Shown in pieces: positions 1,378-57,151 of a stretch of DNA of 64,000 nt. The stretch is from sequence record PQ303785.1, one strand, 5' to 3'. Made by a program: the position numbers and the translations under genes. Numbering within the stretch: position 1 is the first letter of the stretch; each line of letters starts with the position of its first letter. The stretch is from Escherichia phage LYE-01. The notes under the pieces were generated by a model. The model was given only the letters and a program-made list of their open reading frames with translations, made no database searches and was not told the DNA's origin.

Positions 1378-2060
1378 TGTTTGATTTTATTATAGATTTT
1401 GAAACAATGGGAAGCGGTGAAAAAGCAGCTGTTATTGATTTGGCTGTAATTGCTTTTGACCCTAACCCAGAAGTAGTTGAAACATTTGATGAATTAGTTT
1501 CACGCGGCATTAAAATCAAATTTGATTTAAAAAGCCAAAAAGGACATCGTCTTTTTACTAAAAGCACTATCGAATGGTGGAAGAATCAATCTCCTGAAGC
1601 TAGAAAAAATATTGCACCATCCGATGAAGATGTAAGCACTATCGATGGTATTGCAAAATTTAATGATTACATTAATGCACATAATATCGATCCTTGGAAA
1701 TCTCAAGGCTGGTGTCGTGGAATGTCATTTGATTTTCCAATTTTAGTCGATCTCATTCGTGATATTCAGCGTCTTAATGGTGTATCTGAGAATGAGCTTG
1801 ACACATTTAAGTTAGAACCATGTAAATTCTGGAATCAGCGTGATATTCGTACCAGAATTGAAGCACTTCTCCTTGTTCGTGATATGACCACATGTCCTCT
1901 TCCAAAGGGAACTTTAGATGGATTCGTTGCACATGATTCTATTCATGACTGTGCGAAAGACATCCTGATGATGAAGTATGCTTTGCGATATGCTATGGGT
2001 CTTGAAGATGCTCCGTCAGAGGAAGATTGCGATCCTCTATCTCTTCCAACAAAACGATAA
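1377..2060 (+). CDS. dexA: exonuclease A (DexA)
   Basis: 227 aa, N-terminus MFDFIIDFETMGSG (DEDD exonuclease-like), GAGGA SD; matches T4 DexA length and position. Confidence 0.85.
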   Translation: MFDFIIDFETMGSGEKAAVIDLAVIAFDPNPEVVETFDELVSRGIKIKFDLKSQKGHRLFTKSTIEWWKNQSPEARKNIAPSDEDVSTIDGIAKFNDYINAHNIDPWKSQGWCRGMSFDFPILVDLIRDIQRLNGVSENELDTFKLEPCKFWNQRDIRTRIEALLLVRDMTTCPLPKGTLDGFVAHDSIHDCAKDILMMKYALRYAMGLEDAPSEEDCDPLSLPTKR

Positions 2061-2066
2061 AAAGTT

Positions 2067-2096
2067 GTTTACTTCCTCGGTTAGTTGTGGTATTAT
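2067..2096 (+). promoter_or_regulatory. early promoter (GTTTAC, 18 bp, TATTAT)
   Basis: -35 at 2067-2072, -10 at 2091-2096. Confidence 0.6.
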
Positions 2097-2123
2097 AACA
2101 CCATAGCTACTGAGGATAATAAA

Positions 2124-2624
2124 ATGAAAATTTATCGTGTTGAATCATCTTTTAGTATTCTTAATTATGAAGATGCTATAACAATACGTCGAAATCTTTG
2201 TGTTCAAATAACGCCGTACAGGAGTATAATAGATTCATGGAGCGAAGAGTGGTTATTACACGTAGGTTATGATAGACCTAATTTTATGCATCATAGCGAT
2301 AATAATAAAAGAATTCCTTTACCACACGAAGATAAACTATTAGTTAAAAACGCTAATATAGTAATTAATACTAAGTTCAAGAAAGATTATGTTGGAGTAG
2401 AATATCATATTCCAGGATGGTTTATAGCTCTTTATCATTTTGCTTTCGCTAGTGAATATGATATGATGAGATGGTTCACACGAGAAGAGCGGGAAGAATT
2501 ATCTTCTAAAGGATTTTATCTTGCTGTATACGAAGTGCCAGATGACCAAGTTATCATTGGCAGGCGCCAAGTAATGTTCCGCAAATCACATGCTGAACTC
2601 GTAGATTTTATTGAAATGAGATAA
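2124..2624 (+). CDS. hypothetical protein (motB.2 position)
   Basis: Track ORF 2085-2624 begins with TTG inside the promoter; first ATG 2124 follows GAGGA. Confidence 0.5.
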   Translation: MKIYRVESSFSILNYEDAITIRRNLCVQITPYRSIIDSWSEEWLLHVGYDRPNFMHHSDNNKRIPLPHEDKLLVKNANIVINTKFKKDYVGVEYHIPGWFIALYHFAFASEYDMMRWFTREEREELSSKGFYLAVYEVPDDQVIIGRRQVMFRKSHAELVDFIEMR

Positions 2625-2625
2625 T

Positions 2626-3168
2626 ATGAAATTTAATTATACTCCTGAATACACACCAAATCCGGCAGCTAAACTGATTGATTTTGATGTTGTAAGCACT
2701 TATGTATGCCCTGTTAAACCACTGGAAATTAAGGAACCTACTATGACTACCGCTATTGAAATCGGCAAAACCTACAAACTGGTTGAAACTGAAATTAAAA
2801 CTAATGCCTTAATTTCCGGCCATAAAATTTTGACTGATGTTTTTGGCGAAGGCGAATTTACCGTTGAAGACTTTGAAAAAAGTAAATGGTTTACTAAATC
2901 TTATATTGTCCACGGTCGTCGTTTAGACAATAACAAAATAGAGAAAATCCTGGTTTATGAAGCAGAGTTCATCCTGTTCCAAGAAGTTGAAGAACAAGAC
3001 CCTACCGACCTTCTAACTCGTGCAGTAGCTATTAAGACCCCATTTATTTCGGTCTGCGGTTGGGTAACAGACCAGTGGGTTGAAGACGGTGTTGAACTTC
3101 TAAACGTTGTTCATGCAGGTGATTTTAGCGTAGTACCTCGTAGTGCGGTGGTAGCTATTTTAAATTAA
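2626..3168 (+). CDS. MotB paralog (motB.1 position)
   Basis: 180 aa; C-terminus CGWVTDQWVEDGVELLNVV closely matches C-terminus of the next ORF. Confidence 0.55.
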   Translation: MKFNYTPEYTPNPAAKLIDFDVVSTYVCPVKPLEIKEPTMTTAIEIGKTYKLVETEIKTNALISGHKILTDVFGEGEFTVEDFEKSKWFTKSYIVHGRRLDNNKIEKILVYEAEFILFQEVEEQDPTDLLTRAVAIKTPFISVCGWVTDQWVEDGVELLNVVHAGDFSVVPRSAVVAILN

Positions 3169-3170
3169 TA

Positions 3171-3200
3171 GTTTACAAACTCTTGGGACCGGAGTATAAT
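3171..3200 (+). promoter_or_regulatory. early promoter for motB
   Basis: GTTTAC 3171-3176, TATAAT 3195-3200; -10 sits in the loop of GGGACC/GGTCCC. Confidence 0.6.
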
Positions 3201-3244
3201 GGTCCCGCGGAGTATAAAATCTTTTTAACAAGTGAGAGATAACT

Positions 3245-3733
3245 ATGATTATTAATATTGGTGAAATTGCTCGTGTATCTGATAAATCTCGTTCTAAAGC
3301 AGCAGGAAAATTGGTCGAAATTGTAAGCATTCAGCTTAAACACGGCGTTAAAGATGAAGATTCTGAAGTAAAAGTGCGTATCATTCCTAAAGATGGAAAG
3401 TCTAAACCTCAGTTTGGCTATGTTCGTGCGAAATTTCTTGAATCTGCGTTTTTGAAAGCTGTTCCCGCTAAAGGAATTGAGACGATTGATACTTCGCATG
3501 TAGGTGTAGACTTTAAGTGGAAACTCGGTCAATCTATTAAGTTCATTGCTCCTTGCGAATTTAAATTCATTCCAGATGATGGAAAGGCTGTTTATACTCG
3601 TGCTATGTGTGGATACATTACCGATCAATGGGTAGAAGATGGTGTTAAGTTGTACAACGTGGTATTTTTAGGAACATACAAAGTCATTCCTGAAAGTTGG
3701 ATTAAACACTATAGAAATGCGCTCTATGCATAA
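3245..3733 (+). CDS. motB: MotB-like modifier of transcription
   Basis: 162 aa (T4 MotB length), early promoter upstream, position between dexA and gene 39. Confidence 0.65.
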   Translation: MIINIGEIARVSDKSRSKAAGKLVEIVSIQLKHGVKDEDSEVKVRIIPKDGKSKPQFGYVRAKFLESAFLKAVPAKGIETIDTSHVGVDFKWKLGQSIKFIAPCEFKFIPDDGKAVYTRAMCGYITDQWVEDGVKLYNVVFLGTYKVIPESWIKHYRNALYA

Positions 3734-3830
3734 AGTTTAAAATTTTTTCATAAAACTATATACATCAGTAGTTGATTATGGTACTATATCAATATCAACT
3801 ACTGATACAGAAAACAACTTGGAGAATAAA

Positions 3831-4100
3831 ATGGAAAACTTAATTATCATCGAACAATCTTTCAACGATTATGGTATGGCTTACGGTTATCGTGCGATAA
3901 TGGAAGATTCTCGTGGATGTGTTATCGATATTGCTGAATGTAAAGATTTACTGCAGCTTTTGAAGATTGTTCGCAAAAATTGGGATTGTGAAAACATTAA
4001 AGTTCGTGTTGTAACGGAAGAAGAAACTGTTTTTCATGATGTAAAATTTGCCAAAGGTGCTGCTACTCTTCTGAAACGCATCGCTCCACTGTTCAATTAA
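3831..4100 (+). CDS. hypothetical protein
   Basis: Track ORF starts TTG 3819; first ATG 3831 after GGAG. Confidence 0.45.
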   Translation: MENLIIIEQSFNDYGMAYGYRAIMEDSRGCVIDIAECKDLLQLLKIVRKNWDCENIKVRVVTEEETVFHDVKFAKGAATLLKRIAPLFN

Positions 4101-4113
4101 TGAGGAAATTGTA

Positions 4114-4329
4114 ATGAAACGTAAAATTGTTCAGAACTGCACTAATGACGAATTTGAAGATGTATTATTCGATCCAGATTTGGTAGTAGTTCAAAAGGAA
4201 CACACCATTAAGTTTACCCACTTGACTTCGGTTTATGTGTATGAAAAGGTTGGTGATAAACAACCAATTTACGGTGTATTTCGTGAAATTACTGAAGATG
4301 GCACAACTTACTGGAAGGAAATTTATTAA
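4114..4329 (+). CDS. hypothetical 71-aa protein, possibly Cef (tRNA-processing modifier)
   Basis: 71 aa equals T4 cef length; synteny only. Confidence 0.4.
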
Positions 4330-4748
4330 TGGCTATTAAATTTGAAGTTAATAAATGGTATCAATTTAAAAATAAACAAGCTCAAGAAAATTTTATTAAA
4401 GACCATACTGATAACGGAATCTATGCACGACGTTTAGGTATAGAACCTTTTAAAATTTTAGATGTTGACTATTACGGGCGTCCTACTAAAATTGTGACAT
4501 CTACTGGCACAATTGGATATTCAACATGTGGTACAGTCATTGACGAAAACTTTATCTGGCTCTCTACTAACGAAGCTGAGTTCTTTGATGAAGTTGAAAA
4601 TCCATATCAGGCATCTGAAGAGCAAGGGCAGGAAGAGCAAGAACAAATAGAAGATTTCACAGAATTCCCTGTCATGAAAGTTACTATTGAAAATAATGAA
4701 CAGGCATGGTCCTTGTATCAGATGTTGAAAGCACACTTTAAGGAATAA
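4329..4748 (+). CDS. hypothetical 139-aa protein, possibly GoF/ComC-alpha
   Basis: Size and position resemble T4 goF; acidic C-terminal tail. Confidence 0.4.
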
Positions 4749-4750
4749 TT

Positions 4751-4927
4751 ATGCCAATGTATGATTATAAATGCCAATCCGAAGATTGTGGGCATGAATA
4801 TGAAAAAATTAAAAAGATTTCTGAACGAGAAAATGATGTTTGCCCTAAATGTCATCGTTTGTCTACTCGTCGGCCTTCTGCTCCTAAGCATGTGAATGGT
4901 GGATTTTACGACTTACTTAAAGGGTAA
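4751..4927 (+). CDS. small zinc-ribbon protein (58 aa, two CxxC pairs)
   Basis: Not in ORF track (under 60 aa); ATG 4751 to TAA 4925-4927; CQSEDC ... CPKC. Confidence 0.5.
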   Translation: MPMYDYKCQSEDCGHEYEKIKKISERENDVCPKCHRLSTRRPSAPKHVNGGFYDLLKG

Positions 4928-4929
4928 TT

Positions 4930-5301
4930 ATGTTTAAAATCGGTAAGAAATATCGTGTTCGCGAAGGTGAAGAAAAGAAATATCTACTTTCTTCTATTTA
5001 TAGGAATAGTTCTATTAATACTGTAATATCTACAAGCGAATTTATCGTTGAAGATATGAAAGGTCATAATGTTACAATGATTAGTACAGCATCTGGAAAT
5101 GATGGAAAAATTCTTCACAGCTTTCAGAGTAATGTTCTAATTTATGATGAAGAATTTGACTTCTTCGAAGAAGTTACAGAAGATTTTGATTTTGGATGCA
5201 CCATCACTATGAAATCTGGTGACCCTCTTTCATTTACGGTTAAAGATGAAAGAAGTCGCTTGAGAATTATTAGTCTTCTTCAAGCCATTAAATTTGAGTG
5301 A
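4930..5301 (+). CDS. hypothetical protein
   Basis: ORF track, ATG 4930. Confidence 0.5.
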   Translation: MFKIGKKYRVREGEEKKYLLSSIYRNSSINTVISTSEFIVEDMKGHNVTMISTASGNDGKILHSFQSNVLIYDEEFDFFEEVTEDFDFGCTITMKSGDPLSFTVKDERSRLRIISLLQAIKFE

Positions 5302-5305
5302 AATT

Positions 5306-5566
5306 ATGAAATATGTTAATCGTTCTATCGCGGCATTAGTATTAGCAGTATCTTTAGTAGGATGTACTGATGCTGATAATGCAACCAAAGTTTTGTCTTC
5401 AAGTGGGTTTACTAATATTGAAATCACTGGATACAATTGGTTTGGTTGCTCTGAAAATGATTTCCAACACACTGGATTTCGTGCTATTGGACCTACTGGG
5501 CAGAAAGTAGAAGGAACCGTGTGTTCTGGTCTATTCTTCAAGGATTCGACTATCCGTTTTAAATAA
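5306..5566 (+). CDS. putative lipoprotein (lipobox LVGC)
   Basis: Track ORF starts TTG 5294; from ATG 5306: MKYVNRSIAALVLAVSLVGC, signal peptide plus lipobox cysteine. Confidence 0.5.
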   Translation: MKYVNRSIAALVLAVSLVGCTDADNATKVLSSSGFTNIEITGYNWFGCSENDFQHTGFRAIGPTGQKVEGTVCSGLFFKDSTIRFK

Positions 5567-12245: not shown

Positions 12246-12332
12246 ATGAGTTCATTATGGTGGTGTTTCATTTGGTTAATTAGTATTCCATTAATTTGTT
12301 TAACATTTACTTTTGTGATGAGGTTATTATGA
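12246..12332 (+). CDS. hydrophobic micro-ORF (28 aa)
   Basis: MSSLWWCFIWLISIPLICLTFTFVMRLL; below track cutoff. Confidence 0.35.
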   Translation: MSSLWWCFIWLISIPLICLTFTFVMRLL

Positions 12333-12427
12333 AAATTTTGAATTCTGTACTTATTGCTTGTGCGTGGTGGGTTGCGCAAGTTTCGGCAGTAGTGATTGGT
12401 ATTCACATTTATTACGAATATTTTTAA
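12329..12427 (+). CDS. hydrophobic micro-ORF (32 aa)
   Basis: MKILNSVLIACAWWVAQVSAVVIGIHIYYEYF; start overlaps previous stop. Confidence 0.35.
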   Translation: MKILNSVLIACAWWVAQVSAVVIGIHIYYEYF

Positions 12428-12434
12428 AAAAGTT

Positions 12435-12464
12435 GTTTACAAGACTGTTCCTCTGTGGTATTAT
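12435..12464 (+). promoter_or_regulatory. early promoter
   Basis: GTTTAC 12435-12440, TATTAT 12459-12464. Confidence 0.6.
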
Positions 12465-12492
12465 TACTCTATCAACTACGGAGGAACAGAAA

Positions 12493-12606
12493 ATGAAAAA
12501 GATTGTTAAAGCTATATGGAATGTAGTTATAATACTAGTAGTTTTGAGTATATTCCCAATCGTTTTAATGATTGATGTATTAAACGCTTACTTTGGATTT
12601 ATGTGA
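12493..12606 (+). CDS. hydrophobic micro-ORF (37 aa)
   Basis: MKKIVKAIWNVVIILVVLSIFPIVLMIDVL...; ATG after GGAGGAACAG and an early promoter. Confidence 0.45.
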   Translation: MKKIVKAIWNVVIILVVLSIFPIVLMIDVLNAYFGFM

Positions 12607-12613
12607 GGAAAAT

Positions 12614-12811
12614 ATGAAGCGTAAACGCAGTGCTTTTACATTTATTGAATGGTTTTTCGATAATATTTTTCCGGCTTTATTCATTTTCATGTTGATTTTC
12701 GCCTTAGGTTCTGTTGTAGTTGGAATCTATTTGATGGCAGTTGTCGGAATGGATATTCACCAAAATGGTTTAAAATCTGTGGTTGAAACAATTTGGAATG
12801 GTGTAAAATGA
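12614..12811 (+). CDS. small membrane protein (65 aa)
   Basis: ATG 12614 after GAGGA; MKRKRSAF then two hydrophobic helices. Confidence 0.5.
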   Translation: MKRKRSAFTFIEWFFDNIFPALFIFMLIFALGSVVVGIYLMAVVGMDIHQNGLKSVVETIWNGVK

Positions 12812-12918
12812 TGAATTTACTAAACATTTGGTTTTATATTCTTATGTTTTACATTGGCGCAAATATCCCATATTGGATGGGATGGTCAACAACTGCATTT
12901 GGATTTTATACTCCCTGA
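12808..12918 (+). CDS. hydrophobic micro-ORF (36 aa)
   Basis: MMNLLNIWFYILMFYIGANIPYWMGW...; overlaps previous stop. Confidence 0.35.
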   Translation: MMNLLNIWFYILMFYIGANIPYWMGWSTTAFGFYTP

Positions 12919-46987: not shown

Positions 46988-47323
46988 ATGTCTGAAATAC
47001 AACAGCTACCAATTCGTGCTGTCGGTGAATATGTTATTTTAGTTTCTGAACCTGCGCAAGCCGGTGATGAAGAAGTTACAGAATCAGGACTTATTATCGG
47101 TAAACGTGTTCAAGGTGAAGTTCCTGAACTGTGTGTAATTCACTCTGTCGGTCCTGATGTTCCTGAAGGTTTTTGTGAAGTTGGTGATTTGACTTCTCTT
47201 CCAGTTGGTCAAATTCGAAACGTTCCGCATCCTTTTGTAGCTCTGGGTCTTAAGCAGCCAAAAGAAATTAAACAAAAATTCGTTACCTGTCACTATAAAG
47301 CTATTCCATGTCTTTATAAGTGA
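46988..47323 (+). CDS. 31: co-chaperonin gp31 (GroES analogue)
   Basis: 111 aa, [38 protein letters not shown]. Confidence 0.9.
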
Positions 47324-47331
47324 TATAAATA
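47324..47331 (+). promoter_or_regulatory. late promoter (TATAAATA) for rIII
   Basis: Exact TATAAATA right after gene 31 stop. Confidence 0.55.
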
Positions 47332-47470
47332 ATAATATGAATTGGGTGTCGGAATAATAAGTTAACCGAACAATTCTATGTGGTAGTCTACAACTGAGAG
47401 ATCTGTCGAAAGAAGATGAAATTCAGAAGAACGTGACTACCGAGTTTTAATCTCTAACGAGAATTTTTAA

Positions 47471-47719
47471 ATGATTAAACAATTACAACACGCTCTTGAA
47501 CTGCAACGAAACGCATGGAATAATGGTCACGAAAACTATGGCGCATCTATTGATGTTGAAGCCGAAGCTCTTGAAATCCTGCGTTATTTCAAACATCTGA
47601 ATCCTGCTCAAACTGCATTAGCTGCTGAGCTTCAGGAAAAAGATGAACTTAAATATGCTAAGCCTCTGGCTTCTGCTGCACGAAAAGCAGTTCGTCACTT
47701 TGTGGTAACATTGAAGTAA
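47471..47719 (+). CDS. rIII: rIII lysis-inhibition accessory protein
   Basis: 82 aa; late promoter upstream. Confidence 0.8.
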   Translation: MIKQLQHALELQRNAWNNGHENYGASIDVEAEALEILRYFKHLNPAQTALAAELQEKDELKYAKPLASAARKAVRHFVVTLK

Positions 47720-47964
47720 TTTATTGGAGATTCACTGCCTTAGTGTGAGCTAAAATCGAGGAGCCGTCGAACTGTCTGATTAATGATTTGCGAATCATTA
47801 TAGTTTTAAGACCCCGGCAGTTTTACGGTGTACCTCTTGAATGTGAATGATGACGGGTTTATGGTTATCCTGGTCGTTAAATATCCAAAAACCTATGTTC
47901 CCCTTGAGGGCTTGCGCAGGCAATGCCAATAAGTCCTGCATTTTCATTTAAAAGAGAATTTATA

Positions 47965-48141
47965 ATGGCAAAACAAGCTAAAGCAAAGAAAGCAGTTGAA
48001 AAGAAAGTTGGTGATTCTAAACGCGCTGGTTACAAGCGTGGGTCGAACTCTCGTATCAATCAAACTGTTGAGAAGATCATGCGCCGAGCACGTGCGGTTC
48101 TTCGAGATGATGCTTCTCGTTTTGGTAAGCAGAAAGCATAA
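47965..48141 (+). CDS. small basic protein (58 aa; 30.9 position)
   Basis: MAKQAKAKKAVEKKVGDSKRAGYKRG; track start 47923 extends upstream; strong terminator follows. Confidence 0.5.
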   Translation: MAKQAKAKKAVEKKVGDSKRAGYKRGSNSRINQTVEKIMRRARAVLRDDASRFGKQKA

Positions 48142-48146
48142 GTTGA

Positions 48147-48170
48147 GGACTCCTTCGGGAGTCCTTTTTT
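48147..48170 (+). terminator. rho-independent terminator
   Basis: GGACTCC-TTCG-GGAGTCC then T6. Confidence 0.8.
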
Positions 48171-48194
48171 ATTTTCCAAAGATTGCACAAAGTT

Positions 48195-48227
48195 GTTTAC
48201 AGTATAGTTCCTTTGTGATAGTATTAT
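48195..48227 (+). promoter_or_regulatory. early promoter
   Basis: GTTTAC 48195-48200, TAGTAT/TATTAT 48219-48227. Confidence 0.55.
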
Positions 48228-48251
48228 CTTACACAAACAAAGGAGAATAAA

Positions 48252-48584
48252 ATGAAAACGATTAATCTGAACGCTGCGGTTAAAGCTAAATGTTTCAATG
48301 GTGAATATAACGAAACTATGTGGTTCTTAATGGCAGTTGAAGGTGATATTATTGAAGTAGAAACAACAGAAGGTATGGGAACAGATTTCACCTTTACAAT
48401 TCAAGTTCATAATTTCTTTACTGGTTGGATTTATGAATTGAATACAGTAATCGTTGGAAAAATTGAACAAAATGAATTAGGTGAATGGTATTATGTTACA
48501 GCTCGCCAACGTGCAGAACGCTTAATTGAGAAGATGAAAAAAGTTGGCAAACTTGACATGCAGCACTGGAAAGTAGTAAAATAA
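48252..48584 (+). CDS. hypothetical protein (30.8 position)
   Basis: ORF track; early promoter, AAGGAG SD. Confidence 0.5.
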   Translation: MKTINLNAAVKAKCFNGEYNETMWFLMAVEGDIIEVETTEGMGTDFTFTIQVHNFFTGWIYELNTVIVGKIEQNELGEWYYVTARQRAERLIEKMKKVGKLDMQHWKVVK

Positions 48585-48586
48585 TT

Positions 48587-48615
48587 GTTTACTTTGGTAC
48601 AGGATATGATATTAT
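48587..48615 (+). promoter_or_regulatory. early promoter
   Basis: GTTTAC 48587-48592, TATTAT 48610-48615 inside the loop of GGTACAGG/CCTGTACC. Confidence 0.55.
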
Positions 48616-48652
48616 ATACCTGTACCGCAATTAAACATCTTGGAGAATAAAA

Positions 48653-49018
48653 ATGAACTACATCAACTTTGAACGTAAATATGTTTCTAACGGTATTGCA
48701 GGTTCTATTGATACTATTTGCCTTTGGAAACATCAAAATGGATCAGTATGCGAAATTGAACAGTATATGACTCCTAACTACGTTTATATGCGATTTGAAA
48801 ATGGCATCACGGTTTCAATCACGAAAGAAGGTTCTTCTTTTAAAATCGCATTAGATGATGATTTCCGTCAACGCGATTTAGGTACTCATCCTTGCTGGAA
48901 TGGCGTCAATCGTAAGCTTCTGGTTAAAACTTGGATTCGTCATATTCTGAGTAACAGAGCTAAACCTGAGCATCTTGAAGCGATCTTTGATGTAGTTCTT
49001 AATGAATTTGATATTTAA
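48653..49018 (+). CDS. hypothetical protein (30.7 position)
   Basis: ORF track; early promoter, GGAG SD. Confidence 0.5.
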   Translation: MNYINFERKYVSNGIAGSIDTICLWKHQNGSVCEIEQYMTPNYVYMRFENGITVSITKEGSSFKIALDDDFRQRDLGTHPCWNGVNRKLLVKTWIRHILSNRAKPEHLEAIFDVVLNEFDI

Positions 49019-49026
49019 AATAAAAT

Positions 49027-49042
49027 AGGGGCTTCGGCCCCT
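49027..49042 (+). terminator. hairpin AGGGGC-TTCG-GCCCCT
   Basis: GC stem with UUCG loop; no U-run. Confidence 0.4.
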
Positions 49043-49058
49043 TACTGAGGAAAATACT

Positions 49059-49346
49059 ATGTTTATGACTACTTATTTTGATACTCGTAAAAATTTTTGC
49101 GAAGTAGTTTTCTCTAAGGCGCCTAAAGACCTTCCTGCTCATTTGCAGCCTACCAGTGAATCGATTAAAAACTACGTTAATGTAGTATGTCCTTTAGAGT
49201 TCCGTACTGTAAATGGGCGTGATACTCTAGCTATCGCTAAACTCAATCGTGAAATTGACATTGACCCTTCAATTGCGCGTGAAATTAACATTTCTGATAT
49301 TGACGGCGGTAATGTTAAATCGCATGGTTTTCAGATGAGGTTCTAA
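49059..49346 (+). CDS. hypothetical protein (30.6 position)
   Basis: ORF track. Confidence 0.45.
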   Translation: MFMTTYFDTRKNFCEVVFSKAPKDLPAHLQPTSESIKNYVNVVCPLEFRTVNGRDTLAIAKLNREIDIDPSIAREINISDIDGGNVKSHGFQMRF

Positions 49347-49543
49347 TGAAATTCTTTTTGGGTCAAACTGTTGAATTAAAGGGAGTCGGTATACCTGGAT
49401 TAATTTCTAAGGTTCTACCTCCATTTAAATGGAGTGGTATTCAAATAAAAGAGGCTTATATTGTTTCCTGGGTAGATGGAAATGAAGACCTTCGTATGGG
49501 TGATGAATTATCTCCTATCTATGGATTAAAGGAATTAGTATGA
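49346..49543 (+). CDS. hypothetical protein (30.5 position)
   Basis: ORF track. Confidence 0.45.
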   Translation: MKFFLGQTVELKGVGIPGLISKVLPPFKWSGIQIKEAYIVSWVDGNEDLRMGDELSPIYGLKELV

Positions 49544-49746
49544 ATATAATTAATAAGATTTTTGGAATTCAGTACATTAAGGTCACATATAAAGTAACGT
49601 ATAAAGGTCCGTATACCGATGAACATGAAGAACCACAAGTTAAGTCTATTATATTAGAAAAGGACCCTAACTGGCCAGTTGAATTTCGTCTTCCTTGCTA
49701 TGGTCATTGGGCTGATGTTGAAATTATAAGTATTGAAAATGTCTGA
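49540..49746 (+). CDS. hypothetical protein (30.4 position)
   Basis: ORF track. Confidence 0.45.
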   Translation: MNIINKIFGIQYIKVTYKVTYKGPYTDEHEEPQVKSIILEKDPNWPVEFRLPCYGHWADVEIISIENV

Positions 49747-50197
49747 GCTAGAAATAAGAAGCAATTTTAGATGGCCATCATGTGCATTAAGCAATTTCGC
49801 CCAATGGCCTTTCGTTATGGATGGTATCCAATTTGGAGGTCTCGAAGGATTCCTTCAAGGATGTAAGGTGAAAAATGCTGAACAACAACGTCGTATATTT
49901 GGGTTATCCGGGCTTGCCGCCCAACAAGCTGGAAGGTCTTATGCTAGAGCTCAAGACCGTGGGACCCTCTTCTGGCTTGGAGTTCCGTTTTCAAGATACT
50001 CTCCAGCGTGGAAAGAATTATACACAAATGCATACTTTGAAGCAGCGATCCAAAACAAGGGCTTTCGTGATGCATTACAAGCCTCGAAAGGAAAAGTTTT
50101 GAAGCACAGCATGGCTAGTGGTCTAACAAAAGATGATACAATACTAACCGAAGCTGAATTTATTGATGTGTTAAACCTATTAAGAGACTCTCTATGA
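49733..50197 (+). CDS. possible NADAR/YbiA-like domain protein (30.3 position)
   Basis: LSNFAQWPFVMDGIQFGGLEGFLQGCK resembles the YbiA/NADAR core motif as I remember it; not verified. Confidence 0.35.
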   Translation: MKMSELEIRSNFRWPSCALSNFAQWPFVMDGIQFGGLEGFLQGCKVKNAEQQRRIFGLSGLAAQQAGRSYARAQDRGTLFWLGVPFSRYSPAWKELYTNAYFEAAIQNKGFRDALQASKGKVLKHSMASGLTKDDTILTEAEFIDVLNLLRDSL

Positions 50198-51033
50198 AGC
50201 CTACTATTTTAACTGATATTGATGGAGTATGTTTAAGCTGGCAATCAGGTCTTCCTTATTTTGCTCAAAAATATAATCTTCCATTAGAACATATTTTAAA
50301 AATGATCCAAGATGAGAAATTTATTTCTCCAGGTAAACTCTTTAATTGTGACGAAGAACTTGGCGTCAAGTTAATTGAAAAATACAATCGTTCAGATTTT
50401 ATTCGTTACTTGTCTCCGTATAAAGATGCCCTGTGTGTAATTAACAAATTAAAGGAAGATTATAATTTTGTAGCTGTTACAGCATTGGGCGATTCTATTG
50501 ACGCTCTGTTGAATCGTCAATTTAATTTGAATGCTCTTTTTCCTGGTGCCTTCTCAGAAGTAATGATGTGTGGTCATGATTCTTCAAAAGAAGAGCTGTT
50601 CAAAAAGGCAAAAGAGAAATATAACGTAATTTGTTATATTGACGATCTCGCTCATCACTGCGATCATGCAAGTGAAATATTAAATGTTCCTGTTTATTGG
50701 ATGGCTCGAGGGGAGCGTGATAATATTCCAAAAACTGCTCAGCGAGTTTATACATGGAATGATGTAGAAAATAAGCTTTTTTCGCCGAAGGAAAATAAAG
50801 AAAGTTTTGATAGTGAAAAAGCTATAAAAGATTTAATTGAGAAGATGGTTAAAAACGATTCTTTTCCTTGGAACACTACCTGGAGAACGCCTGGATTAAA
50901 TCCTTATAATCATCTATATCATCCATATCAGACACATCCGTTTCAGACATGGAACTATATTAAACCTGGTGGCATAGAGTATTTGTATAATAGACCTACT
51001 AGTGGTGATAATATTTTTCAAGGAGCATTCTAA
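50194..51033 (+). CDS. HAD-superfamily hydrolase-like protein (30.2 position)
   Basis: N-terminal ILTDIDGV (HAD motif I) and downstream YIDD. Confidence 0.45.
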   Translation: MKPTILTDIDGVCLSWQSGLPYFAQKYNLPLEHILKMIQDEKFISPGKLFNCDEELGVKLIEKYNRSDFIRYLSPYKDALCVINKLKEDYNFVAVTALGDSIDALLNRQFNLNALFPGAFSEVMMCGHDSSKEELFKKAKEKYNVICYIDDLAHHCDHASEILNVPVYWMARGERDNIPKTAQRVYTWNDVENKLFSPKENKESFDSEKAIKDLIEKMVKNDSFPWNTTWRTPGLNPYNHLYHPYQTHPFQTWNYIKPGGIEYLYNRPTSGDNIFQGAF

Positions 51034-51302
51034 TGTTTGTTGTTCATACTATTTATGAAAATGAAGGTAATACTACACGTGATTACGGTCACGTAAATCA
51101 ATTTTTTAGATGCAATCCAGAATTCCGTGCTCAAAAAGACGAACGAATTTTTAAAAAATGTGTAGAACAAGGTTTCATTTACGTCAAGCACTGGATGCAA
51201 GGAAATAAAGTTAGAACTACATATCATAGGTCTTTGCCTGAGCTTAATGATGAATTGATTTATAATAGAGCTGTAAACCAAACCTTGAAGGATGAGCAAT
51301 GA
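51033..51302 (+). CDS. hypothetical protein (30.1 position)
   Basis: ORF track. Confidence 0.45.
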   Translation: MFVVHTIYENEGNTTRDYGHVNQFFRCNPEFRAQKDERIFKKCVEQGFIYVKHWMQGNKVRTTYHRSLPELNDELIYNRAVNQTLKDEQ

Positions 51303-52759
51303 TTCTTAAAATTCTGAATGAAATAGCATCTATTGGATCAACTAAGCAGAAGCAAGCAATTCTTGAAAAGAATAAAGATAATGAATTGCTTAAACGAGTA
51401 TATCGTCTGACTTATTCTCGTGGGTTACAGTATTATATCAAGAAATGGCCTAAGCCTGGTATTGCTACCCAGAGTTTTGGAATGCTGACTATTACCGATA
51501 TGCTTGACTTCATTGAATTCACGTTAGCTACTCGGAAATTGACTGGAAATGCAGCAATTGAGGAATTAACTGGATATATCACTGATGGTAAAAAGGATGA
51601 TGTTGAAGTTTTGCGTCGGGTTATGATGCGAGACCTTGAATGCGGTGCTTCAGTATCTATTGCAAACAAAGTTTGGCCAGGTTTAATTCCTGAACAACCT
51701 CAAATGCTGGCAAGTTCTTATGATGAAAAAGGCATTAGTAAGAATATCAAGTTTCCAGCCTTTGCGCAGTTAAAAGCAGATGGAGCTCGGTGTTTTGCTG
51801 AAGTCCGAGGCGATGAATTAGATGATGTTCGTCTTTTATCGCGAGCTGGTAATGAATATCTAGGATTAGATCTTCTTAAGGAAGAGTTAATCAAAATGAC
51901 TGCTGAAGCCCGCCAGATTCATCCAGAAGGTGTGTTAATTGATGGCGAATTGGTATACCATGAGCAAGTTGAAAAGGAACCAGAAGGCCTAGATTTTCTT
52001 TTTGATGCTCCTGAAATCAGTAAAGCTAAAGAGTTTGCCGAAGTAGCTGAATCTCGTACTGCTTCTAATGGAATCGCTAATAAATCTTTAAAGGGAACTA
52101 TTTCAGAAAAAGAAGCCCAATGTATGAAGTTTCAGGTCTGGGATTATGTTCCGTTGGTAGAAATATACGGTCTTCCGGCGTTTCGTTTAAAATATGATGT
52201 ACGTTTTTCTAAACTAGAACAAATGACATCAGGATATGATAAAGTAATTTTAATTGAAAACCAAGTAGTAAATAACCTAGATGAAGCTAAGGTAATTTAT
52301 AAAAAATATATTGACCAAGGTCTTGAAGGTATTATTCTCAAAAATACCGATGGATTGTGGGAAAATGCTCGTTCAAAAAATCTCTATAAATTTAAAGAAG
52401 TAATTGATGTTGATTTAAAAATTGTAGGAATTTATCCTCACCGTAAAGACCCTACTAAAGCGGGTGGATTTATTCTTGAATCAGAGTGTGGAAAAATTAA
52501 AGTAAATGCTGGTTCAGGCTTAAAAGATAAAGCCGGTGTAAAATCACATGAACTTGACCGTACTCGCATTATGGAAAACCAAAATTATTATATTGGAAAA
52601 ATTCTAGAGTGCGAATGCAATGGTTGGTTAAAATCTGATGGTCGCACTGATTACGTTAAATTATTTCTTCCAATTGCGATTCGTTTACGTGAAGATAAAA
52701 CTAAAGCTAATACATTCGAGGATGTATTTGGTGATTTTCATGAGGTAACTGGTTTATGA
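51299..52759 (+). CDS. 30: ATP-dependent DNA ligase
   Basis: 486 aa, MILKILNEIASIGSTKQKQAIL; adenylation-domain motifs. Confidence 0.9.
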   Translation: MILKILNEIASIGSTKQKQAILEKNKDNELLKRVYRLTYSRGLQYYIKKWPKPGIATQSFGMLTITDMLDFIEFTLATRKLTGNAAIEELTGYITDGKKDDVEVLRRVMMRDLECGASVSIANKVWPGLIPEQPQMLASSYDEKGISKNIKFPAFAQLKADGARCFAEVRGDELDDVRLLSRAGNEYLGLDLLKEELIKMTAEARQIHPEGVLIDGELVYHEQVEKEPEGLDFLFDAPEISKAKEFAEVAESRTASNGIANKSLKGTISEKEAQCMKFQVWDYVPLVEIYGLPAFRLKYDVRFSKLEQMTSGYDKVILIENQVVNNLDEAKVIYKKYIDQGLEGIILKNTDGLWENARSKNLYKFKEVIDVDLKIVGIYPHRKDPTKAGGFILESECGKIKVNAGSGLKDKAGVKSHELDRTRIMENQNYYIGKILECECNGWLKSDGRTDYVKLFLPIAIRLREDKTKANTFEDVFGDFHEVTGL

Positions 52760-52944
52760 AAGCTTACTTAGAAACAATTGTCGTGGCTCAAAAAGAAGGT
52801 GGAGATGTTTCTACTTCGGTATCACAAGTCATTCTCGAATTTGTAGATGCATATGCTTATAATAAATTTACAGAAACATTTGATGCCTACGAAAAAGGTC
52901 CAAAGTTTGAAATATATCGTACTCTCTTACCACTAGATTATTAA
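52756..52944 (+). CDS. hypothetical 62-aa protein
   Basis: ORF track; followed by hairpin terminator. Confidence 0.45.
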   Translation: MKAYLETIVVAQKEGGDVSTSVSQVILEFVDAYAYNKFTETFDAYEKGPKFEIYRTLLPLDY

Positions 52945-52960
52945 AGGCCTTCGGGCCTTT
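52943..52960 (+). terminator. hairpin terminator, identical to the one at 5566
   Basis: AAAGGCC-TTCG-GGCCTTT then AATTTT; precedes the alt late promoter. Confidence 0.55.
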
Positions 52961-52965
52961 AATTT

Positions 52966-52973
52966 TATAAATA
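52966..52973 (+). promoter_or_regulatory. late promoter (TATAAATA) for alt
   Basis: Exact TATAAATA between terminator hairpin and alt start. Confidence 0.65.
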
Positions 52974-52996
52974 GAATAAACACTAGAGAGGATATG

Positions 52997-55090
52997 ATGG
53001 AACTCATTACAGAATTATTTGACGAAGATACTACTCTTCCGATTACAAACTTAAATCCAAAGAAGAAAATACCACAAATTTTTTCAGTTCATGTTGATGA
53101 TGCAATTGAACAACCAGGCTTTCGTTTATGTACCTATACATCTGGAGGTGATACTAATCGCGATTTAAAAATGGGCGATAAAATGATGCATATTGTTCCT
53201 TTTACATTAACTGCTAAAGGTTCAATTGCTAAATTAAAAGGTCTCGGTCCAAGTCCAATTAATTACATCAATTCAGTTTTTACTGTTGCAATGCAGACGA
53301 TGCGTCAGTATAAAATTGATGCCTGTATGCTTCGTATTCTTAAGTCTAAAACTGCTGGTCAAGCTCGACAAATTCAAGTTATTGCTGATAGACTTATCCG
53401 TAGTCGTTCAGGTGGCAGATACGTCCTTCTTAAGGAACTCTGGGATTACGATAAAAAGTACGCATATATTCTTATACATCGCAAAAATGTATCACTAGAA
53501 GACATTCCAGGAGTTCCGGAAATTAGTACCGAGCTTTTTACTAAAGTCGAATCGAAGGTCGGCGATGTTTATATCAATAAAGATACTGGAGCTCAAGTAA
53601 CTAAAAATGAAGCAATTGCAGCATCTATTGCGCAAGAAAATGATAAACGTTCTGACCAAGCTGTAATCGTTAAAGTTAAAATTTCCCGTAGAGCAATTGC
53701 GCAAAGTCAATCATTAGAATCTTCTAGATTTGAAAGCGAATTATTCCAGAAGTATGAATCTACCGCAGCCAATTTTAATAAGCCTGCTACTGCTCCTTTA
53801 ATTCCAGAAGCAGAAGAAATGAAGCTTGGAATTAATTCATTAGCTTCTAAAACTAAGGCAGCAAAAATCATTGCCGAAGGAACCGCAGATGAACTTCACT
53901 ATGACTATAAATTCTTTTCAAAAAGTGAGGTTAATGAAGTTTCTGAAAAAATTAAAGATGTAATTCTTAATGCGATTAAAAATGAACCAACTACTTCAAT
54001 AAAATGTTTAGAGAAATACGCAGCAGCTGTTAATCAATTCTTTGAAGAATATAAAGATAATTGGCTTGATAAACATAATAAAACTCGTAAAGGACAGCCA
54101 GATGAAGTCTGGGAAGAAATAACTAAAAATTCCTGGAACGCAGCAAAAACTAAATTCCTCAAACGAATGATTTATAGCTTTTCTGGAATTGGTGCAGGTC
54201 CAATGATTGATATTACCATTGCCCGTGATGGTTCTAAATACACTCCATCGCAAAAGCGCGGAATTAGAGAGTATTGCGGATCAGGATATACTGACATCAA
54301 TAATCTTCTTTTAGGCCGCTACAATCCAGAACGATATGATGTAATGAGTGAAAAAGAAATTGAATCTGCGATAAATAATTTAGATTCAGCTTTTGAAAAT
54401 GGTGACCGTATACCAGAAGGCATTACAGTTTATCGTGCTCAAAGTATGACTGCTCCTATATATGAAGCACTAGTTAAAAATAAAGTGTTCTATTTCAGAA
54501 ATTTTGTATCTACTTCTTTAACTCCTATCATTTTTGGACGTTTTGGAATTACACATGCTGGTATCGGTCTTTTAGAACCAGAAGCTCGCAATGAATTAAC
54601 AGTTGATAAAAATGAAGAAGGAATAACTATTAATCCAAACGAAATAAGAGCGTATAAAGAAAATCCTGAATACGTTAAAGTTCAAATAGGATGGGCTATT
54701 GATGGAGCTCATAAAGTTAATGTTGTATATCCAGGAAGTCTCGGAATAGCAACAGAAGCTGAAGTTATTCTACCACGCGGATTGATGGTCAAAGTTAATA
54801 AAATAACTGATGCTTCTAATAATGATGGAACAACATCTAATAATACAAAACTCATTCAAGCTGAAGTTATGACTACGGAAGAACTCACCGAATCGGTAAT
54901 TTATGACGGTGACCGTCTAATGGAAACTGGTGAATTGGTTGCAATGACAGATGATATTGAAATAGAAGACAGAGTTGACTTTGCATCATTTGTTTCATCA
55001 AATGTTAAACAGAAAGCAGAATCATCTCTCGGAATTATTGCGTCTTGCATAGATATTACAAACATGCCTTACAAGTTCGTTCAAGGATAA
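52997..55090 (+). CDS. alt: ADP-ribosyltransferase Alt (head-packaged)
   Basis: MELITELFDEDTTLPITNL N-terminus; R (YRAQ), STS (FVSTSLTP) and ExE (EAEVILPRG) motifs; late promoter upstream. Confidence 0.85.
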   Translation: MELITELFDEDTTLPITNLNPKKKIPQIFSVHVDDAIEQPGFRLCTYTSGGDTNRDLKMGDKMMHIVPFTLTAKGSIAKLKGLGPSPINYINSVFTVAMQTMRQYKIDACMLRILKSKTAGQARQIQVIADRLIRSRSGGRYVLLKELWDYDKKYAYILIHRKNVSLEDIPGVPEISTELFTKVESKVGDVYINKDTGAQVTKNEAIAASIAQENDKRSDQAVIVKVKISRRAIAQSQSLESSRFESELFQKYESTAANFNKPATAPLIPEAEEMKLGINSLASKTKAAKIIAEGTADELHYDYKFFSKSEVNEVSEKIKDVILNAIKNEPTTSIKCLEKYAAAVNQFFEEYKDNWLDKHNKTRKGQPDEVWEEITKNSWNAAKTKFLKRMIYSFSGIGAGPMIDITIARDGSKYTPSQKRGIREYCGSGYTDINNLLLGRYNPERYDVMSEKEIESAINNLDSAFENGDRIPEGITVYRAQSMTAPIYEALVKNKVFYFRNFVSTSLTPIIFGRFGITHAGIGLLEPEARNELTVDKNEEGITINPNEIRAYKENPEYVKVQIGWAIDGAHKVNVVYPGSLGIATEAEVILPRGLMVKVNKITDASNNDGTTSNNTKLIQAEVMTTEELTESVIYDGDRLMETGELVAMTDDIEIEDRVDFASFVSSNVKQKAESSLGIIASCIDITNMPYKFVQG

Positions 55091-55093
55091 ATC

Positions 55094-57151
55094 ATGGAAC
55101 TTATTACAGAATTATTTGACGGCGCTTCGGCGCCGGTTGTTAACTTAAATCCTAAGCATAAAATACCTCAAATTTTTGCTATTCAAGCAGGCGAAGAAAG
55201 CGTGCTTCCTGGATTTAGATTTTGTACATACACCTCTGGCGGTGATACAAATAAAAACGTTAAGCCAGGCGATAAAATGATGCATATCGTAATGATAGGT
55301 GTCAATGAGAAACTATCATTAGTTAAACTTAGAAACTTGGGTGGAAATCCAATTGGTGTCATTAATGCGGTTTTTGATACTGCTCTTCAGACAATGAAAC
55401 AATACAAAATTGACGCATGCTTATTCCGCGTACTAAAGAGTAAAACAAATGGTGCAGCTCGTCAAATGCAAGTTATTGCCGACCGTTTAGTACGTACTAA
55501 AGGAGCAGGTCGATATGTTCTTTTAAAGGAAATCTGGGATTACGATAAAAAGTACGCATATATTATGGTTTACCGTAAAAATGCTAATTTAGAAGACATT
55601 CCAGGTGTACCTCCTATTTCAACTGAGTTATTCACAAAAGTTGAATCAAAGGTTGGTGATGTTTATGTAGATGTTAAAACAGGTAATGCTGTTCCTAAAG
55701 CTGTTGCTGTTGCTGCTTCTATTGCTTTAGAAAATGATAAGCGCACGGATCAAGCTGTTATTCAGAAAACTAAAATTAGTCGTCGGTTAGCAGCACAAGC
55801 TCAATATTCTACTGTCGATGCTTCACTTCAGGGTGATAGCTTCGCTGCTAAGAAATATCAAGAGTTTGAATCTAAAGTTCCGGTATATAAAGCAGAAGGA
55901 CCAATGAACTCTGGCGTTATTCAGGTTGGTTCAAACTTCAGCAAAGGAGCTATCGGTGGTATGAGAAGTGCTTCCCGTTTTAAATCTAGTGATTATGAAT
56001 TAGAAAGCTTCCGAAATCATATTGCATTGGCTCATGCGCGTTTACGTGATCCATCTATCAAGTTACAGAGCGATATATCATATCAAGGTTCTCAAGAATA
56101 TTTAAAGAATAAAGAATTTTTTGATTATAAAACTGATAAAATTTTAAGTGATCTTGCTGACATTAATATTTCTAATAGCTTTGATGTTATTAAGAAAATT
56201 GTCAATGATTTAGTTAAAGGTTCTAAAGCCACACCAGATGAAAAGGTAGCTATTGTTCAATTTGTCATGAATGGCGTTTATAAATTGATTAATGAGTCTG
56301 CTTCTCAAGCGTATGAATATGCAAGTACTGAAGTAACTCCAAAAGGATTAACTCAGGCTGAGTCTGATGTAATTGAAGATTATTGTGCAGATTCATATGT
56401 TGAAATGAACTCGTTCCTTTTAGGTAAACCGGATTCTACTCGTGAAGAATACATGGAACGAGCTATTAAACACATCGAGACAATGGATTCTGCCTTTGCC
56501 AAAGGATCAGTTCTTCCTCCAGGAACTACACTTTACCGTGGACAAGAAGTTACCTTTAAAACTTTACGTCATAATATTGAAAATAAAATGTTCTACTTCA
56601 AGAACTTCGTATCCACATCGCTTAAACCAAATATCTTCGGTGAGTATGGTAAAAACTATATGGCTCTAGATGATTCCGGCGCAGTATTTTCTGGTGAAGG
56701 AGAAGGTTCAGTTGACGCAGAAGATTTGATGCATATGGGCAGTCACTCTGCTTATGCGAATGAAGATGCTGAAACTAGCGTGGGTATGGTAATTAAAGGA
56801 GCTGAGCGAATCAAAGTTATCGTTCCAGGACATTTATCAGGATTTCCATCAGAAGCTGAAGTTATTTTACCGCGTGGAATTTTGCTGAAGATTAATAAAG
56901 TGAGTACGTACATGATGAAAGAAACTGCTTATAATAAGTATCTAATCGAAGGCACAATCGTTCCTCCTTCTGAACAATTAGAAGAATCGGTATATGATGG
57001 CGACCATCTAATGGAAACTGGTGAAGTTCGTCCAATGGCTGGATTTAATCAATTCCTTGTAGAAGAATCAAAAGAAGAGGAAAACGAAGTTTCTCAAATC
57101 TTGGCTTCTTTGGTTAACATCAACGGAATGTCTAAAAAGTTCAAGATGTAG
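55094..57151 (+). CDS. Alt paralog, second ADP-ribosyltransferase
   Basis: 685 aa; N-terminal ~200 aa nearly collinear with Alt; YRGQ / FVSTSLKP / EAEVILPRG motifs intact. Confidence 0.75.
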   Translation: MELITELFDGASAPVVNLNPKHKIPQIFAIQAGEESVLPGFRFCTYTSGGDTNKNVKPGDKMMHIVMIGVNEKLSLVKLRNLGGNPIGVINAVFDTALQTMKQYKIDACLFRVLKSKTNGAARQMQVIADRLVRTKGAGRYVLLKEIWDYDKKYAYIMVYRKNANLEDIPGVPPISTELFTKVESKVGDVYVDVKTGNAVPKAVAVAASIALENDKRTDQAVIQKTKISRRLAAQAQYSTVDASLQGDSFAAKKYQEFESKVPVYKAEGPMNSGVIQVGSNFSKGAIGGMRSASRFKSSDYELESFRNHIALAHARLRDPSIKLQSDISYQGSQEYLKNKEFFDYKTDKILSDLADINISNSFDVIKKIVNDLVKGSKATPDEKVAIVQFVMNGVYKLINESASQAYEYASTEVTPKGLTQAESDVIEDYCADSYVEMNSFLLGKPDSTREEYMERAIKHIETMDSAFAKGSVLPPGTTLYRGQEVTFKTLRHNIENKMFYFKNFVSTSLKPNIFGEYGKNYMALDDSGAVFSGEGEGSVDAEDLMHMGSHSAYANEDAETSVGMVIKGAERIKVIVPGHLSGFPSEAEVILPRGILLKINKVSTYMMKETAYNKYLIEGTIVPPSEQLEESVYDGDHLMETGEVRPMAGFNQFLVEESKEEENEVSQILASLVNINGMSKKFKM

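Follow-up and report, generated by a model that had tools for sequence, protein, structure and literature searches.

The adfN locus of phage LYE-01

The 64,000-nt window of Escherichia phage LYE-01 (PQ303785.1) analysed here, whose positions are used throughout, carries at 49739..50197 a gene that very probably encodes AdfN, a NADAR-fold enzyme that would counter host DarTG1 by guanine de-ADP-ribosylation of phage DNA. The segment around it (49500-51300) is 97-99% identical in DNA sequence to many Tequatrovirus genomes (689 phage records match), and the gene order is that of phage T4, namely cd, 31.2, 31.1, 31, rIII, 30.9 to 30.1, 30 (ligase), alt.1, alt, alt.-3 and 54. adfN lies between genes 30.4 and 30.2 in the cd-to-gene-30 region, in an order identical to those of T4 and RB69. 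An earlier note, made from the sequence alone, had flagged a pair of open reading frames (ORFs) here as a possible NADAR/YbiA-like protein next to a HAD-like hydrolase; by their place in this T4-like gene order, the two are T4 genes 30.3 and 30.2. The features of adfN on which the argument depends are the following.

49739..50197, + strand: adfN, orthologue of T4 gene 30.3, encoding a probable 152-aa NADAR-fold DNA ADP-ribosylglycohydrolase (the mechanical ORF starts at TTG 49733)
49844..49846, + strand: codon GAA of the predicted catalytic Glu36, invariant in the family alignment and aligned with a Glu of YbiA; E36A impairs the T4 protein, AdfN-T4 (PMC11825919)
49865..49867, + strand: codon AAG of the predicted catalytic, phosphate-coordinating Lys43, invariant in the family alignment and aligned with a Lys of YbiA; K43A impairs AdfN-T4 (PMC11825919)
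50105..50107, + strand: codon CAC of the last-strand His123, which does not vary in the family alignment (H125 in the 154-aa numbering) and is a signature of the phage gp30.3 clade (PMC11125620, PMC11543638)
50150..50194, + strand: the C-terminal 15 residues, EAEFIDVLNLLRDSL, which form the terminal helix (helix 140-153 in the model)

The ORF list contains, as the earlier note had said, a 154-aa frame at 49733..50197 (+) that is read from a TTG and includes LSNFAQWPFVMDGIQFGGLEGFLQGCK. The real start is likely the ATG at 49739, since it gives 152 aa and 459 nt, the length of T4 gene 30.3, since the protein then opens with MSELEIRS as its homologues do, and since it puts a Glu at 36 and a Lys at 43, in line with the published E36 and K43. 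The stop of 30.4 (TGA 49744-46) overlaps this start, and the TGA of adfN in turn overlaps the ATG of 30.2 (ATGA 50194-97).

The predicted protein is identical to T4 gp30.3 at 150 of 152 positions (99%), and the two differences, A47 for V and M125 for I, are both conservative. It matches the Pfam family PF08010 (Phage_30_3) with E 5.4e-70 and 234 bits, where the threshold is 36, and covers the whole profile (positions 1-138 of 138). LYE-01 AdfN has the same length and genomic position as AdfN-T4, retains E36, K43 and H123, and has an intact C-terminal helix, ending at residue 152 with the 15 residues given above. The gp30.3 of RB69, by comparison, ends ...DTILT after 137 aa, 15 residues shorter, and the terminal helix is lost in this DarTG1-sensitive allele. 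The LYE-01 allele has its full length, and we infer that it is active. We note that AdfN is 95% identical to its RB69 counterpart over the 137 shared residues and that the overlapping gp30.4 is just 49% identical (49540-50197 compared with 12268-12889 of the RB69 locus, L107).

AdfN as a NADAR-fold enzyme directed against DarTG1

Resemblance to YbiA in sequence alone is suggestive and not significant. In a single-sequence phmmer search of all PDB sequences E. coli YbiA (2b3w) is the sole match at E <= 10 (E 1.3, over the motif that had caught the eye of the earlier reader), and a 10-sequence family profile raises it to E 0.054. The predicted structure is what establishes the NADAR fold: the AlphaFold2 model built from the family alignment (pLDDT 88.8, pTM 0.85) finds 2b3w in the PDB by Foldseek with E 7.7e-5 and TM 0.68, together with 8bau, a Phytophthora NADAR with ADP-ribose, and 8bat, the NADAR of Geobacter lovleyi DarG1. 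All three have a probability of at least 0.99 and are the only significant structural matches, all remaining ones being at or below 0.08, so the suspicion that this ORF is NADAR/YbiA-like was correct. The E..[FL]Q..K motif has its catalytic residues, Glu and Lys, in E36 and K43. The last-strand acidic residue, Glu in the YbiA type and Asp in the BC4488/DarG1 type, is replaced by His123, as in all phage gp30.3-type NADARs; De Souza and Aravind, as cited in PMC11543638 and PMC11125620, assign gp30.3 proteins to a phage clade of NADARs marked by a last-strand His. His123 thus marks a third clade inside the superfamily and does not exclude membership. The DarG1 NADAR antitoxins (E. coli C7 and Geobacter lovleyi 8bat) differ from AdfN in having the Asp, are only ~15% identical to it, and belong to DarTG1 systems, whereas AdfN is an orphan without a linked DarT1.

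The gene, fold, activity and phenotype of adfN are already in the literature and are not novel. The name adfN (anti-DarT factor NADAR) was given to gene 30.3 in 2025, when the DarTG1 resistance of T2 and T4 was mapped to it and it was found necessary and sufficient for resistance in T-even phages (Johannesman et al., Nat Commun, PMC11825919). Like the E36A and K43A substitutions, an RB69-like truncation of 15 C-terminal residues impairs AdfN-T4, and RB69 is fully rescued by AdfN-T4 in trans; the purified T4 protein strips ADP-ribose from DarT1-modified DNA and does not bind DarT1 (PMC11825919). A phage gp30.3 NADAR labelled as that of T4 cleaves guanosine-ADP-ribose and not thymidine-ADP-ribose in vitro (Suskiewicz and colleagues, PMC11125620). 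The idea that a NADAR enzyme encoded here might reverse ADP-ribosylation of guanine therefore holds for the 99%-identical T4 protein (PMC11825919, PMC11125620), and the knockout on DarTG hosts once proposed as a check has already been published; transposon sequencing in the HIDEN-SEQ preprint (10.1101/2025.11.20.689424) finds that 30.3 can be disrupted on K-12, whereas on DarTG1 hosts, where it is needed, such mutants drop out (log2 fold change, log2FC, -7.25, adjusted p, padj, 0 in the T4 Control_vs_DarTG1 table).

Infection of a DarTG1 host would, on the proposed mechanism, free DarT1, which would ADP-ribosylate guanine in the phage DNA and block its replication. AdfN, a small N-glycosidase, would then bind the ADP-ribose and hydrolyse the guanine-ribose bond, presumably with the involvement of Glu36, Lys43 and the phage-clade His123, and the unmodified DNA so restored would allow replication to proceed. 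It would work enzymatically, as the host DarG1 antitoxin does, and without binding the toxin. For LYE-01, the present analysis contributes to this reading that the protein corresponds to T4 AdfN, has the NADAR fold and retains both the key residues and the C-terminal end; the activity and phenotype come from the published experiments on the T4 protein.

Several points weigh against it. Pfam gives no PF08719 (NADAR) match for the adfN ORF at E <= 1. The earlier note had named a missing NADAR/DUF1768 profile match or an unrelated fold as grounds for giving up the assignment; the profile match is indeed missing for PF08719, and the fold is the same. Since two representatives of the gp30.3 family match PF08719 at E 1.2e-6 and the fold is shared, the missing match reflects Pfam's placing of the phage clade in PF08010 and not non-homology; a fusion protein described below (L103) bridges the two families as well, at E 0.001. 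One of the two substitutions relative to T4, M125, sits two residues past His123, and Met is the commoner residue there among homologues. The construct behind the in vitro cleavage data is given in Methods 4.2 of PMC11125620 as 'E. coli T4 phage NADAR (gp30.3; residues: 1-208)', which does not fit the 152-aa T4 gp30.3, so that the data may have been obtained with a longer homologue, or the construct may be mis-stated; the same T4-labelled protein did not rescue E. coli from DarT1 (PMC11125620). Finally, AdfN-T4 gives uninfected cells no protection from DarT1, unlike the DarG1 antitoxins, and non-T-even phages only a partial rescue (PMC11825919, PMC11125620), so that its mechanism in vivo includes a further T-even-specific component; it is fully effective only in T-even infection, and a T-even protein has been proposed as the reason (PMC11825919).

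With an intact AdfN allele, LYE-01 is inferred to be DarTG1-resistant. An intact adfN predicts resistance to DarTG1-carrying hosts and is useful for the choice of phages and the prediction of host range. More broadly, AdfN illustrates how a fold used in bacterial antitoxins can be co-opted by a phage for mending its DNA once the host has attacked it by ADP-ribosylation.

Other roles considered for AdfN

Two further genes enter into one of the alternatives.

52994..55090, + strand: alt, positional orthologue of the T4 Alt ADP-ribosyltransferase (698 aa; PF03496 E 1.8e-37; phrog_802)
55094..57151, + strand: a second, intact Alt paralogue (685 aa; PF03496 E 2.4e-20; phrog_802; 41% identical to T4 Alt)

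Both carry PF03496, in agreement with the earlier view that two Alt-type transferase genes lie downstream; the nearer begins ~2.0 kb past the end of 30.2 and 3.3 kb past the start of 30.3. That note had also speculated about a functional link, for which we find no support. It is very improbable that AdfN serves to undo or dampen ADP-ribosylation catalysed by Alt, ModA or ModB of the phage itself, even though the two Alt-type genes are only 2-3 kb downstream on the same strand and T4-like NADARs share early gene expression with ADP-ribosyltransferases (Iyer et al. 2022, PMC9503650); beyond this shared early expression we found no evidence tying AdfN to the Alt genes. Alt-type enzymes modify arginine residues of proteins, whereas NADARs have been characterised as acting on guanine-ADP-ribose, the phage enzyme being inactive on thymidine-ADP-ribose and activity on arginine-ADP-ribose not having been reported. 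The only 30.3 phenotype found depends on host DarT1, whose DNA modification is the target; insertions in alt (log2FC -0.01), modA (0.11) and modB (0.13) are all neutral in the HIDEN-SEQ DarTG1 table, alt thus not being required for DarTG1 resistance, the phage can do without 30.3 on plain K-12, a host on which Alt and Mod are active, and many phages that bear 30.3 hold it in other contexts.

Still harder to credit, and in our view almost negligible, is a housekeeping role for AdfN, as an N-glycosidase like YbiA whose substrates would be intermediates of the riboflavin pathway and not DNA. YbiA, a riboflavin-linked housekeeping enzyme, is its best PDB sequence match and a top structural match. 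AdfN, however, has the phage-clade His where the YbiA family (PF08719) has its defining Glu, YbiA itself cleaves guanosine-ADP-ribose in vitro (PMC11125620), and DNA de-ADP-ribosylation and the DarTG1 phenotype have been demonstrated directly for the T4 protein. Action of AdfN on DarT1-modified phage DNA remains by far the preferred reading.

LYE-01 differs from T4 in its Alt genes. Where LYE-01 has the second paralogue, all that is left in T4 is alt.-1 and alt.-2, the decayed remnants of a duplication, and LYE-01 alt is a mosaic, 70% identical to T4 Alt overall, in which residues 1-245 and the last ~100 are near-identical and the center, including the catalytic part (about 250-560), is far more diverged.

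Genes 30.4 and 30.2 and the T-even-specific component

Gene 30.4 and a recurrent NADAR-HAD fusion offer leads on why AdfN-T4 works fully only in T-even infection. The genes next to and within adfN are as follows.

49540..49746, + strand: gene 30.4 (68 aa; phrog_2042, a PHROG of unknown function), whose stop overlaps the adfN start
49875..50102, + strand: 30.3', a 75-aa ORF in another frame inside adfN (intact; phrog_14037; annotated in T4 as internal translation in a different reading frame)
50194..51033, + strand: gene 30.2 (279 aa), with a predicted HAD-superfamily phosphatase core (residues ~1-195, NT5C-like) and a low-confidence C-terminal tail

Start/stop overlaps run on the + strand from 30.6 to alt.1 (49059-52944), at 30.6/30.5, 30.5/30.4, 30.4/30.3, 30.3/30.2, 30.2/30.1, 30.1/30 and 30/alt.1, and the chain is probably translationally coupled. 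So tight a chain makes polar effects of insertions plausible and adjacency weaker as evidence for shared function. A scan of 47300-53100 for promoter-like and terminator-like sites gave numbers near chance (20 against 19.2 expected and 4 against 3.1, respectively).

Gene 30.4 is the sole other significant gene in the HIDEN-SEQ Control_vs_DarTG1 comparison (375.9 to 108.0; log2FC -1.79, p 1e-4, padj 0.014), and insertions in the upstream genes 30.6 (-0.30) and 30.7 (-0.19) are neutral in the same table. Of the 63 loci retrieved that have a 30.3 homologue, 30 contain 30.4; in each of these it immediately precedes a 30.3 of the T-even type, and it does not occur by itself; the RB69 copy, at the 49% identity given above, is intact. 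It has no Pfam family match and is not mentioned in the main text of PMC11825919 or of the HIDEN-SEQ preprint. That 30.4 is a T-even-specific factor needed for full AdfN activity is a rather doubtful proposition; a polar effect on adfN is the simpler reading of its transposon signal.

The product of gene 30.2 opens with MKPTILTDIDGV and is identical to T4 gp30.2 at 270 of 279 positions. It has no Pfam match, PF06941 included, belongs to PHROG 420, which has no assigned function, and gave no literature match under 'gp30.2'. That the neighbour at 50194 is a HAD-like hydrolase, as first supposed from its opening motif, is confirmed in the predicted structure, which has a Rossmann-like core and a cap, and agrees with its motifs and profile. 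Of the residues that make up HAD motifs I-IV, D8, D10, K132, D150 and D151 do not vary among 31 homologues, and T96 hardly does. The AlphaFold2 model has a core to residue ~195 with pLDDT about 77-98 per 10-residue block and a poor tail, and finds 90 PDB matches by Foldseek at E <= 0.001; the 50 listed are all HAD-family proteins or engineered on a HAD scaffold and include the deoxyribonucleotidase-like 3bwv and cdN 2jao and 2i7d, with a probability of 1.0 for the NT5C family. The family profile has as its best PDB sequence match the mouse 5'(3')-deoxyribonucleotidase 2jao (E 0.0064, over motif I and the cap), and some homologues match Pfam weakly, PF00702 in 9 of 31 and PF06941 (NT5C) in 6 of 31 (best E 1.2e-4). 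NT5C thus appears to be the closest family, with gp30.2 a candidate member; with the NT5C enzymes (PF06941; cdN 2jao, 2i7d) it shares HAD motifs I-IV and a DxDGVL..[W/F].SGL signature, and it differs from them in its extra, low-confidence tail of ~80 residues. gp30.2 has an invariant Trp16 eight residues past the nucleophile Asp, a position that we take to be that of the base-stacking Phe in cdN/mdN structures and that points to a nucleotide substrate.

A two-enzyme pathway can also be considered, in which AdfN would free ADP-ribose or a phosphorylated ribose product, an NT5C-like gp30.2 would process it, and 30.2 would be the T-even factor. Such a pathway is unlikely, for all that the ATGA overlap suggests translational coupling of adfN and 30.2, that the best PDB sequence match of gp30.2 is an NT5C enzyme, and that NADAR and NT5C domains occur fused. 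Insertions in T4 30.2, scored at 71 TA sites, leave fitness on DarTG1 hosts undiminished (271.5 to 249.8, log2FC -0.12, p 0.61), and because they are neutral 30.2 is not needed for DarTG1 resistance. Nor do the two genes travel together consistently. Among IMG/VR loci anchored on 30.2, a 30.3 homologue lies upstream on the same strand in about 37 of 79, and about 42 of 79 have none within 4 kb, so that 30.2 is kept in many T4-like phages without a nearby 30.3; the genes overlap in T-even-like genomes and are 0.1-1.5 kb apart in others. In a second set, of 26 loci anchored on 30.3, the gene 30.2 is adjacent in close relatives with a contig that continues past 30.3, and eight of the nine distant ones have no separate 30.2 nearby, two of these eight (L102 and L103) having a HAD domain fused instead. 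gp30.2 as a missing cofactor of AdfN for DarTG1 resistance was rejected, its insertions being neutral and the gene widespread without 30.3. The adjacency of adfN and 30.2 is best explained as conserved synteny in a tightly packed, one-strand gene run.

The fusions are of interest in themselves. In L102 (4914-5969, +) and L103 (3478-4440, +) an N-terminal gp30.3-type NADAR is joined to a PF06941 NT5C domain that scores above threshold, and a database search with the L103 protein gave 1831 matches, of which all 120 listed (P0123-P0242) carry PF08010 and PF06941; among those listed some add an N-terminal PF01885 (Tpt1/KptA RNA 2'-phosphotransferase) and several come from Bacteroidaceae and Prevotellaceae assemblies, such fusions being present in IMG/VR contigs too. 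The fusions have the domain types and N-to-C order of 30.3 followed by 30.2, and keep the phage-type His; unlike the T4-type pair they are one polypeptide in another context, and their HAD part is a clear PF06941 member, which gp30.2 is not. The similarity between gp30.2 and the fused domain is just moderate (hhalign probability 50-70%, motif I and cap only), and a hidden Markov model of gp30.2 had no match in the 147 gp30.3-family representatives scanned (P0243-P0389). That family has 1451 representatives at E <= 0.001, and NT5C occurs in 1 of its 75 multi-domain representatives; HAD as a general partner of gp30.3-type NADARs was rejected on this count, the other partners (LRR, ASCH, GDSL lipase) being heterogeneous. 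The fusions do show that NADAR and HAD domain types can cooperate in some systems.

The L102 fusion has another residue in place of the second Asp of HAD motif I (VDMGGVL). The genes on either side of the L103 fusion (region 1533-5501) encode a 456-aa protein with a DSP-PTPase domain (PF22784), a phage lysozyme, and an enzyme of the ADP-ribosylglycohydrolase family (PF03747, E 3.4e-67); this grouping of enzymes that process ADP-ribose recalls the phosphatase-containing, ARG-centred systems in Iyer et al. 2022 (PMC9503650).

The gp30.2 tail (50791-51033, residues ~200-279) is rich in P, W, Y, N and T, is missing in the ~200-220-aa homologues of Acinetobacter and other phages, and keeps the motif G(T)GIEYL..(Q/R)PT in enterobacterial T4-like homologues; it looks like a linear interaction motif.

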